Below, piece by piece: positions 564-974 of a DNA stretch of 15,498 nucleotides (within the stretch, counting starts at the first letter, position 1; each line of letters starts with the position of its first letter). This DNA is from a virus (taxonomy: Duplodnaviria > Heunggongvirae > Uroviricota > Caudoviricetes). The translations under genes were made by a program, and so were the position numbers. The notes beneath the pieces were generated by a model, which worked only from the letters and a program-made list of their open reading frames with translations, searched no databases and was not told the DNA's origin. The stretch lies in the IMG/VR virus record IMGVR_UViG_2563366800_000001. The stretch is one strand, 5' to 3'.

Positions 564-974
564 TTAATATCCCATTGCAATGTAATACGCATCAGAAGAT
601 GCACCATATACTGAACCGGGCGACACTGTAATATCAAATCCAGTGTTATGGATATTTGTCGCCGATACAGTCGGCTGCCCTGACGCGCCAGTAACGTTCA
701 ATGTAACTACGACAGCAAGGACTCTTGAGAACGTCATCGGGAACGTCATCCCGTATGTTGAAGATGCATTCGGGGGGCTATTCAACATACCGCACTGTAA
801 AATTAATCCAGACGGAAATTTTTGCGCAGCAGCCGTTGCGGTATTACTTGACGCGAACAGGCTCATATCAGGTATCTGATTCGCCCCTGTACCTACATTC
901 CTTTTAGCTGCTTCTCCCAAACCAACGTTTTCGATAATGATCGTTAGTCGCTCAAATGGCATTATTCCCGCCAT
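564..974 (-). CDS. tail fibre C-terminal variable cassette (S'v-type, promoterless, inside the invertible segment)
   Basis: 136-aa ORF directly 5' (on the - strand) of tfa, with Gly/Ser/Thr/Ala/Asn-rich fibre-tip-like composition. An in-frame TAA lies immediately 5' of its first Met (975-977) and a crossover site (912-937) sits inside its first ~20 codons, as expected for a cassette that is only expressed after fusion to a constant fibre segment. Confidence 0.55.
   Translation of the reverse strand: [136 protein letters not shown]
912..937. other. site-specific recombination crossover site of the hix/gix/pix family (26 bp, two imperfect 12-bp half-sites around a central AA)
   Basis: TTCTCCCAAACC AA CGTTTTCGATAA. 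Compare hixL as I recall it: TTCTTGAAAACC AA GGTTTTTGATAA. The reverse complement of the right half-site (TTATCGAAAACG) matches the family half-site TTATCaAAAACC at 11 of 12 positions. It lies 55 bp upstream of the invertase start, the position gixR/hixR-type sites occupy. Confidence 0.7.

Follow-up and report, generated by a model that had tools for sequence, protein, structure and literature searches.

The 26-bp sequence at positions 912–937 of the window (the whole stretch of 15,498 nucleotides that we analysed, IMG/VR record IMGVR_UViG_2563366800_000001) is very probably the right-hand crossover site of an invertible tail-fibre segment of the Pin/Gin type, a segment of ~1.83 kb that forms the last module of a Mu-like prophage. 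Invertible tail-fibre segments and the Fis-dependent invertases that act on them have been textbook material since the 1980s, and for that reason the system described here matters little for basic knowledge. The switch was read correctly in an initial annotation made from the DNA sequence and is an ordinary one of a well-known kind; the less ordinary angle lies only in a possible role, like that of StfE2 of prophage e14, for the open reading frame (ORF) next to the invertase gene.

The crossover site, its invertase and a candidate enhancer

The features of the region that contains the site are the following.

912–937: right crossover site, the equivalent of pixR and gixR, with 12-bp half-sites TTCTCCCAAACC and CGTTTTCGATAA flanking the core AA (924–925).
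938–991, plus strand: spacer of 54 bp from the right site to the start of the invertase gene, containing the conserved TGGCATTAT (957–965).
992–1546, plus strand: serine DNA invertase of the Hin/Gin/Cin/Pin subclass, 184 amino acids, with Resolvase and HTH_7 domains.
1010–1081 (nucleotides 19–90 of the invertase gene, pin): candidate recombinational enhancer (sis), collinear with the enhancer annotated in P1.

The site reads TTCTCCCAAACCAACGTTTTCGATAA on the plus strand and consists of two imperfect 12-bp repeats on either side of AA, with dyad symmetry. It is the sole match to this 26-mer in the 15.5-kb window when as many as three mismatches are allowed (0 matches are expected from shuffled sequences), and it is identical to pixR of e14 at 23 of 26 positions, to cixR of P1 at 21 of 26, and to gixR of Mu at 19 of 26, which bears out the proposal in the initial annotation that a site of the hix/gix family lies here. 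That annotation had also placed the site 55 bp upstream of the invertase gene; the adjacency holds, but the spacer is 54 bp long, 55 being the offset from the end of the site to the ATG at 992. A spacer of 54 bp is also found in e14 and in Mu, and one of 55 bp in P2-like phages, and TGGCATTAT is kept at the same position in e14, Mu and the P2-like phages in the form TGGCATnAT. This motif resembles an extended −10 element and may mark a putative promoter for the invertase gene. A scan for sigma-70 promoters and terminators returned nothing around the site or in the spacer, with a hit frequency not above that of shuffled sequences. The minus-strand ORF that runs from 974 to 564 reads through the crossover site in frame. 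Homology to other prophages and phages breaks at 925–943, inside or next to the site, and since the homology that the window's cassette shares with many prophages and with Shigella phages stops there, the site is also an evolutionary module boundary.

The invertase contains a resolvase domain (PF00239, E 6e-51) and an HTH_7 domain (PF02796, E 6e-12) and matches the crystal structures of Mu Gin (3UJ3/4M6F) over its full length (E 6e-93, ~80% identity); it is 87% identical to PinE of e14, 82% identical to P1 Cin and 79% identical to Mu Gin. Disruption of the catalytic residues, which the initial annotation had named as an outcome that would speak against an active switch, is not what we find: the protein is full-length and Y5, R7, S9, D33, R42 and R65 are all present, as are D64 and R68, which were read from the sequence and from the alignment of KLDRLGRS with gamma-delta resolvase. 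Also present are the basic helix-B residues K46, R47 and R50 and a Fis-contact patch made up of Q150, R153 and L154 (the numbering is that of Hin minus 1, the Hin residues being 47, 48 and 51 and Q151, R154 and L155), and it is these helix-B and Fis-contact residues, whose roles have been described, that distinguish Fis- and enhancer-dependent invertases from resolvases (PMC3798978). Two loci that encode an identical invertase protein (L003 and L007) have no recognisable pix-type site at the usual 54 bp, as judged from the 160 bp upstream of the invertase gene; instead, these loci have GAAACGTCAACCA...CCTTTGGGG as a repeated motif, possibly a crossover region that is rearranged or of another kind.

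A Fis-bound enhancer had been expected within the first ~150 bp of pin, and homology to P1 does provide a candidate in that interval. The Cin enhancer is annotated in the P1 record at nucleotides 19–90 of cin, and an ungapped alignment carries this stretch over to positions 1010–1081 of the window. Two Fis-like 15-mers, TATCAACAAATGACC (1014–1028) and GTGCAGGATGTGAGC (1062–1076), each agree with KNNYRNNWNNYRNNM at 7 of 7 positions; their centres are 48 bp apart, the first centre lies ~96 bp from the crossover core, and both 15-mers fall in the blocks that are best conserved among pin, cin and gin. A spacing of 48 bp between two Fis sites is a family feature of recombinational enhancers. The layout of the candidate fits what has been described for the hin enhancer, which is 65 bp long, has Fis sites at both ends and lies ~100 bp from hixL (PMC3798978). 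Because the Fis consensus is far too permissive when taken alone (a scan with a degenerate version gave dozens of near-matches and was uninformative by itself), the assignment of 1010–1081 as an enhancer is a putative one that follows from homology. An earlier pick, 1025–1039 together with 1073–1087 (also 48 bp apart), was dropped, as the P1 enhancer ends at nucleotide 90 of cin.

The host prophage and the layout of the segment

Immediately downstream of the invertase gene, the foreign DNA comes to an end.

1547–1611: right end of the prophage, ...TTGATTGGCGCGCGGCA, with the terminal CA at 1610–1611.
1612–1640, minus strand: first 29 nucleotides of the host gene dgcM, cut by the insertion (blastn to K-12; translation MITHNFNTLD).

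The foreign DNA ends in ...GCGCGCGGCA (...GGCA) at 1611, and the rest of the window, starting at 1612, has 99.95% identity to Escherichia coli K-12. The insertion interrupts dgcM after nucleotide 29 (codon 10), and dgcM is thus knocked out in this strain; the annotated product of the gene is a diguanylate cyclase, with a role in curli control. The exact invertase protein is found in many assemblies. Across the eleven loci that we compared for the prophage end (L001–L008, L010, L011 and the source locus L009), the 65-bp tail after the invertase gene and the terminal CA are identical and are followed by unrelated host DNA at eleven chromosomal places, the flanks of the relatives including yiiF, the gyrA side, the gyrB side and fli genes. 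Upstream genes encode proteins with Pfam Mu gp41, gp45, gp46, gp48, baseplate-J and DNA_circ_N domains, and in EC09 the prophage is ~32 kb long and complete-looking, with genes for a MuA-like transposase, a MuB-like AAA ATPase, Gam and Mor as well as lysis, head and tail genes. The conserved ...CA end with its varied flanks, taken together with the Mu-type genes, argues for a Mu-like transposable prophage whose right end lies in the window. That the element is e14 itself was considered and rejected on its context: e14 is defective and lambdoid, sits at icd and has mcrA beside pinE, whereas here the invertase gene is followed, after 65 bp, by the end of a transposable phage and by dgcM; the invertase and the site are still closest to Pin and pix of e14. 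When the tail module was compared with deposited phage genomes the best match was a Klebsiella phage at 68.6%, with fragments in Mu-like phages of Vibrio and Shewanella, so the prophage is without a named relative in that collection. The locus flags an uncharacterised Mu-like prophage that is probably active and whose host range would alternate.

Two further observations concern the DNA around this junction. Between the stop codon of the invertase gene and the end of the prophage, the minus strand has a weak hairpin that resembles a terminator (GATCGCGTTTGTGATC and then a poor T-run, 1552–1567) and might limit read-through from dgcM into the prophage. Farther downstream, the Rac prophage (10812–11158 and 13590–15498) differs from that of K-12: 347 bp with a partial lysozyme gene take the place of the 6.2 kb that in K-12 extend from the recE 5′ end to ydaW (racC, kilR, sieB, racR and ydaS–W), and past ynaK the sequence diverges, with a 264-amino-acid ParB_N protein and a patch 96% identical to stfR at 15025–15345.

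In the source scaffold (locus L009; GCA_000408625.1, KE137202.1), where position x of the window corresponds to x + 9009 with all tested anchors exact, the window starts directly after a scaffold gap of 190 N (L009 8820–9009) that lies inside the invertible segment. An inverted partner site had been predicted within about 3 kb to the left of the window, and an intact one, CTCTCACAAACC-TT-GGTTTGGGAGAA, is present there at L009 8718–8743. This site sits within Sc, the constant part of the fibre gene, whose 98 codons end in ...AALTNLGLGE; Sc lies to the left of the gap, in keeping with the prediction of a constant fibre segment outside the window. The inner half of the partner site is the exact reverse complement of the inner half (TTCTCCCAAACC) of the window site, and with the cores reading TT and AA the two sites are therefore inverted repeats with matching cores.

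The whole segment is uninterrupted in EC09, which is 98.6% identical to positions 1–1611 of the window and has 1,829 bp between the two sites, in the following order.

EC09, left part: Sc; left site, L001 7057–7082; Collar-type tip Sv; tfa, 7566–8168.
EC09, right part: tfa′ and Sv′ on the other strand; right site, 8912–8937; invertase gene, 8992–9546.

The fibre formed by Sc and Sv in EC09 is 267 amino acids long. Sc joins in frame to Sv in EC09, and to Sv′ in the source scaffold and in ECONIH4, and each tip is then followed by its own Caudo_TAP gene. The invertible segment explains the assembly gap at the left edge of the window, whose estimated 190 N compare with ~840 bp expected from EC09, a shortfall of ~650 bp. 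In ECONIH4 (L005 6090–8467), an IS66-family element inside the invertible segment splits the tfa′/Sv′ region, and the Mu-like prophage of this strain sits within a Rac-like prophage, adjoining pinR.

The window itself carries the right part of the segment, which comprises one cassette and the end of another.

1–168 (frame 4–168), plus strand: 3′ end (last 54–55 codons) of the tail-fibre assembly gene U/tfa of the pin-distal cassette (Caudo_TAP, E 5e-11).
140–559, minus strand: tail-fibre assembly (chaperone) gene U′/tfa′ of the pin-proximal cassette, 139 amino acids, complete (Caudo_TAP, E 7e-30).
564–925, minus strand: cassette Sv′, the alternative C-terminal (receptor-binding) part of the fibre, from the crossover core to the stop codon at 564–566.
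564–974, minus strand: stand-alone pin-proximal ORF, consisting of a leader that starts MAGI and of Sv′; 136 amino acids from ATG 974, 132 amino acids from ATG 962.

The frame at 4–168 encodes a C-terminal fragment (positions 81–131 of the Caudo_TAP profile), and the tfa end at 1–168 is 92% identical to the end of tfa in EC09, the 5′ part of the gene falling in the scaffold gap. The exact U′/tfa′ protein occurs on segment-sized contigs and beside the same invertase. These two genes are convergent and overlap by 29 nucleotides; the initial annotation had taken them to mark the centre of the segment, and while both are indeed Caudo_TAP genes arranged as it described, the point of convergence in EC09 lies ~150 bp to the right of the geometric centre. 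The Sv′ ORF contains a Gp53-like_C tail-fibre tip domain in its C-terminal 85 residues (E 1e-13), and Sv′ shares 96.7% identity with the short tail fibre that Shigella phage SfIV expresses. More broadly, the serotype-converting phages SfIV, SfI, SfII and SfV of Shigella flexneri have a tail-fibre region that is 94–97% identical to the tfa/tfa′/Sv′ cassette region at positions 1–934; in these phages the Sv′–tfa′ cassette is the expressed short tail fibre and an invertase is absent; in SfIV the arrangement is locked, with no invertase and with the second tfa truncated by an IS element.

Cassette expression and segment orientation

According to the initial annotation the cassette beside the invertase gene is promoterless, has an in-frame stop just 5′ of its first Met, and can be expressed only after inversion. 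The stop is found as described, a TAA at 977–975 lying directly 5′ of ATG 974 on the minus strand; in L017 and L018 the gene that reads from 974 to 564 is called as 132 amino acids, from ATG 962. That the cassette is promoterless agrees with the lack of a sigma-70 consensus hit, which is the sole basis for the term. Expression only after inversion corresponds to the classical view of Mu, whose S′ is unexpressed in G(+), and this counts against a product being made from the cassette in its present orientation. The classical view may not hold for this locus, given the conserved ATG and the reported activity of StfE2 in e14 (PMC12529663).

An unlikely reading, which would add to the inversion switch and not replace it, is that the pin-proximal ORF (ATG 962 or 974) is made as a free fibre-tip protein of 132–136 amino acids that, like StfE2, masks a surface receptor or otherwise serves the host, in which case a host phenotype, for instance phage defence, would be toggled by the switch as well. 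StfE2 is the product at this position in e14 after inversion, is composed of the leader MPFACYFFIFINVGLGE and a gp53-like domain, and is reported to be biologically active: it blocks adsorption of T2, and the inverted state of e14 is T2-resistant (PMC12529663). The layout of StfE2, an MPF... leader followed by a Gp53-like domain, matches that of the window's ORF, and the ORF, aligned with reconstructed e14 StfE2, is 32% identical (E 2e-5) and arranges leader and tip alike; against this, the identity of the tip domain to that of StfE2 is only 32%. An in-frame MP start is kept at the same distance from the site in e14, in Mu, and in P2-like phages of Salmonella and Klebsiella, but the conserved ATG is the complement of TGGCAT, and an extended −10 element of the invertase gene would explain its conservation equally well. 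The minus strand near 975–1100 has no promoter-like site, and ATG 974 is preceded by no clear Shine–Dalgarno sequence; the promoter region of dgcM, which would lie in the zntB–dgcM intergenic region (~1641–1894), points leftward, making read-through on the minus strand conceivable. The StfE2-like architecture and the conserved ATG together suggest that the cassette beside the invertase may not be inert. We regard as quite unlikely the more elaborate proposal that this ORF (974/962 to 564) is expressed as a free StfE2-like tip by way of the promoter of the interrupted dgcM, that the switch toggles a host phenotype (phage exclusion), and that it is flipped in trans by PinE, PinQ and PinR; the supply of read-through into the prophage end by the dgcM promoter is speculation. 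If the proposal were true, several prophages would be linked into one switching network through the repeats that are identical to those of e14.

Both orientations of the segment, which the initial annotation had suggested looking for, are found between genomes, and the junctions that characterise both are found within the source assembly. In the finished genomes of EC09 and ECONIH4, Sc and the invertase are 100% identical and the whole segment between them is in opposite orientation. In the source scaffold, the last 90 nucleotides before the gap reproduce exactly the minus strand of positions 925 to 836 of the window, and the junction of Sc with Sv′ (in the left contig) and that of Sv′ with pin (in the window) thus coexist in one assembly. 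Since one DNA molecule cannot hold both junctions without duplication of the cassette, the simplest reading is that both orientations were present in the sequenced culture and that the assembler broke at this point. In a related strain (L002) the scaffold is interrupted precisely where both sites have their inner edges, 1,975 N standing in place of the segment, and Logan contig L016 is exactly the segment bounded by 14-nucleotide repeats. From the inconsistent scaffold we infer, at the level of the assembly, that the segment was heterogeneous in the source culture.

These observations also bear on the possibility, which we consider improbable, that the locus is a frozen relic in which flipping has ceased although the site, its partner and the invertase look intact, the signal for both orientations being an assembly artefact of repeated cassettes. 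Tail-fibre cassettes are multi-copy in E. coli, occurring at up to 10 places per genome, and contig breaks at the sites could therefore also stem from repeats; the related cassettes of SfIV, SfI, SfII and SfV are locked without an invertase, and the gap of 190 N does not fit the expected length of the segment. Moreover, the 76 nucleotides beyond the left site contain no SNPs that separate the cassette of the source strain from that of EC09 or ECONIH4, and so do not suffice to establish that one physical cassette accounts for both copies in the scaffold. On the other side, Sc matches 5 of 5,426 finished genomes, being rare and specific to this prophage family, and a contig that crosses from Sc into Sv′ thus needs real reads that span the junction. 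In addition, in EC09 and L016 (99.6%), whose complete segments are the closest, Sv and Sv′ already differ at the base that follows the site, and the enzyme and both sites are intact. Because the evidence comes from a scaffold rather than from reads and the cassettes are multi-copy, flipping activity in this strain is strongly suggested, not proven; the switch looks intact and probably still flips.

It is extremely improbable that the conserved sequence is a mere coding motif (NLGLGE) at a fibre domain boundary, that is, a hotspot for homologous cassette exchange and not a site-specific target, for although homology between unrelated prophages or phages starts or stops within 925–943 and the motif is translated in both fibre forms, such a reading leaves unexplained the dyad symmetry, the inverted partner with its matching core, the fixed distance of 54 bp to a dedicated invertase, and the inversion of the whole segment between genomes with identical flanks, and identical repeats are proven crossover points in e14 (PMC12529663).

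In the reading that we prefer, that of a Pin/Gin-type invertible segment, the layout from left to right is Sc, the left site, Sv and U (reading rightward), U′ and Sv′ (reading leftward), the right site, the invertase gene and the end of the prophage. Dimers of the invertase would bind both 26-bp sites, which have the inner half-site TTCTCCCAAACC in common and are inverted with respect to each other about their AA/TT cores, and Fis bound to the enhancer in the 5′ end of the invertase gene would assemble with the occupied sites into an invertasome. Ser9 would then cut the 2-bp cores, and the segment would flip. The 98-codon constant part (...NLGLGE) would in this way be joined either to the Collar-type tip or to the Gp53-like tip of the window, with the matching chaperone gene placed behind the joined tip, and the receptor specificity of the phage would change. 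Of this scheme, the site and its partner, the reading frames, the intact enzyme and both orientations (in nature and in the source assembly) are observed, while the dependence on Fis and the enhancer, the promoter, the rate of flipping and the effect on host range are what we infer.

Comparison with known systems

The switch has features in common with four described systems. As described in the literature, Hin and hix of Salmonella share with it sites of 26 bp as well as the basic helix-B and Fis-contact residues (PMC3798978; here K46, R47, R50, Q150, R153 and L154), and the Fis-dependent enhancer within hin, ~100 bp from a hix site, has a candidate counterpart here. Hin, however, flips a promoter, whereas here it is the coding 3′ ends of a fibre gene that are swapped. 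The C segment of P1 with its invertase Cin has the same AA/TT core, a cixR that agrees at 21 of 26 positions, an invertase with 82% identity, and an enhancer that aligns without gaps to 1010–1081. P1 differs in that its invertase gene is directed towards the segment, with the 3′ end of the gene overlapped by cixL; in the window, as in Mu and e14, the gene has the site on its upstream side.

The G segment of Mu with its invertase Gin corresponds in the order of the right end, which is gp47, gp48 and Sc, then gixL, then Sv U and U′ Sv′, then gixR, 54 bp and the invertase gene. The invertases are 79% identical, with a full-length match to the Gin structures, and the enhancer blocks are conserved. 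Mu differs in having a core of GA/TC (here AA/TT), a segment of 3 kb (here 1.8 kb) and a constant part of ~170 amino acids (here 98); com and mom are absent after the invertase gene here, and the tail module has no nucleotide similarity to that of Mu.

With the P segment of e14 and PinE the likeness extends to the sites themselves. The inner half-site and the AA core are identical (pixR of e14 being TTCTCCCAAACC AA CGTTTATGAAAA), the left sites differ little, both spacers measure 54 bp and the invertases are 87% identical. The P segment is likewise ~1.8 kb long, with a constant part of ~100 amino acids that ends in NLGLGE and with Collar-type and Gp53-like tips that each have their own tfa; the Gp53-like tip of e14 is ~32% identical to that of the window. 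The state of the window, with the Gp53-like tip beside the invertase gene, corresponds to the “inverted”, StfE2-type state of e14. The genomic setting is different, e14 lying at icd with mcrA, whereas the element described here is a complete-looking Mu-like prophage that occupies varied places and ends after the invertase gene. The crossover repeats of e14, 14–16 nucleotides long, are TTGGTTTGGGAGAAGG and CCTTCTCCCAAACCAA (PMC12529663), the same as those found here. In experiments PinE, PinQ and PinR invert the P segment of e14, for which sequenced E. coli are polymorphic (PMC12529663, PMC4272514), and both of its states coexist in cultures (PMC4272514). Through the repeats that the two elements share, a natural isolate would allow work on cross-talk between this switch and further Pin enzymes in the cell, and on the recently reported anti-phage effect of the StfE2 type. 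Judged by these comparisons of sequence and gene content, the closest known system is Pin of e14, and the genomic setting and gene order are those of the G segment of Mu.
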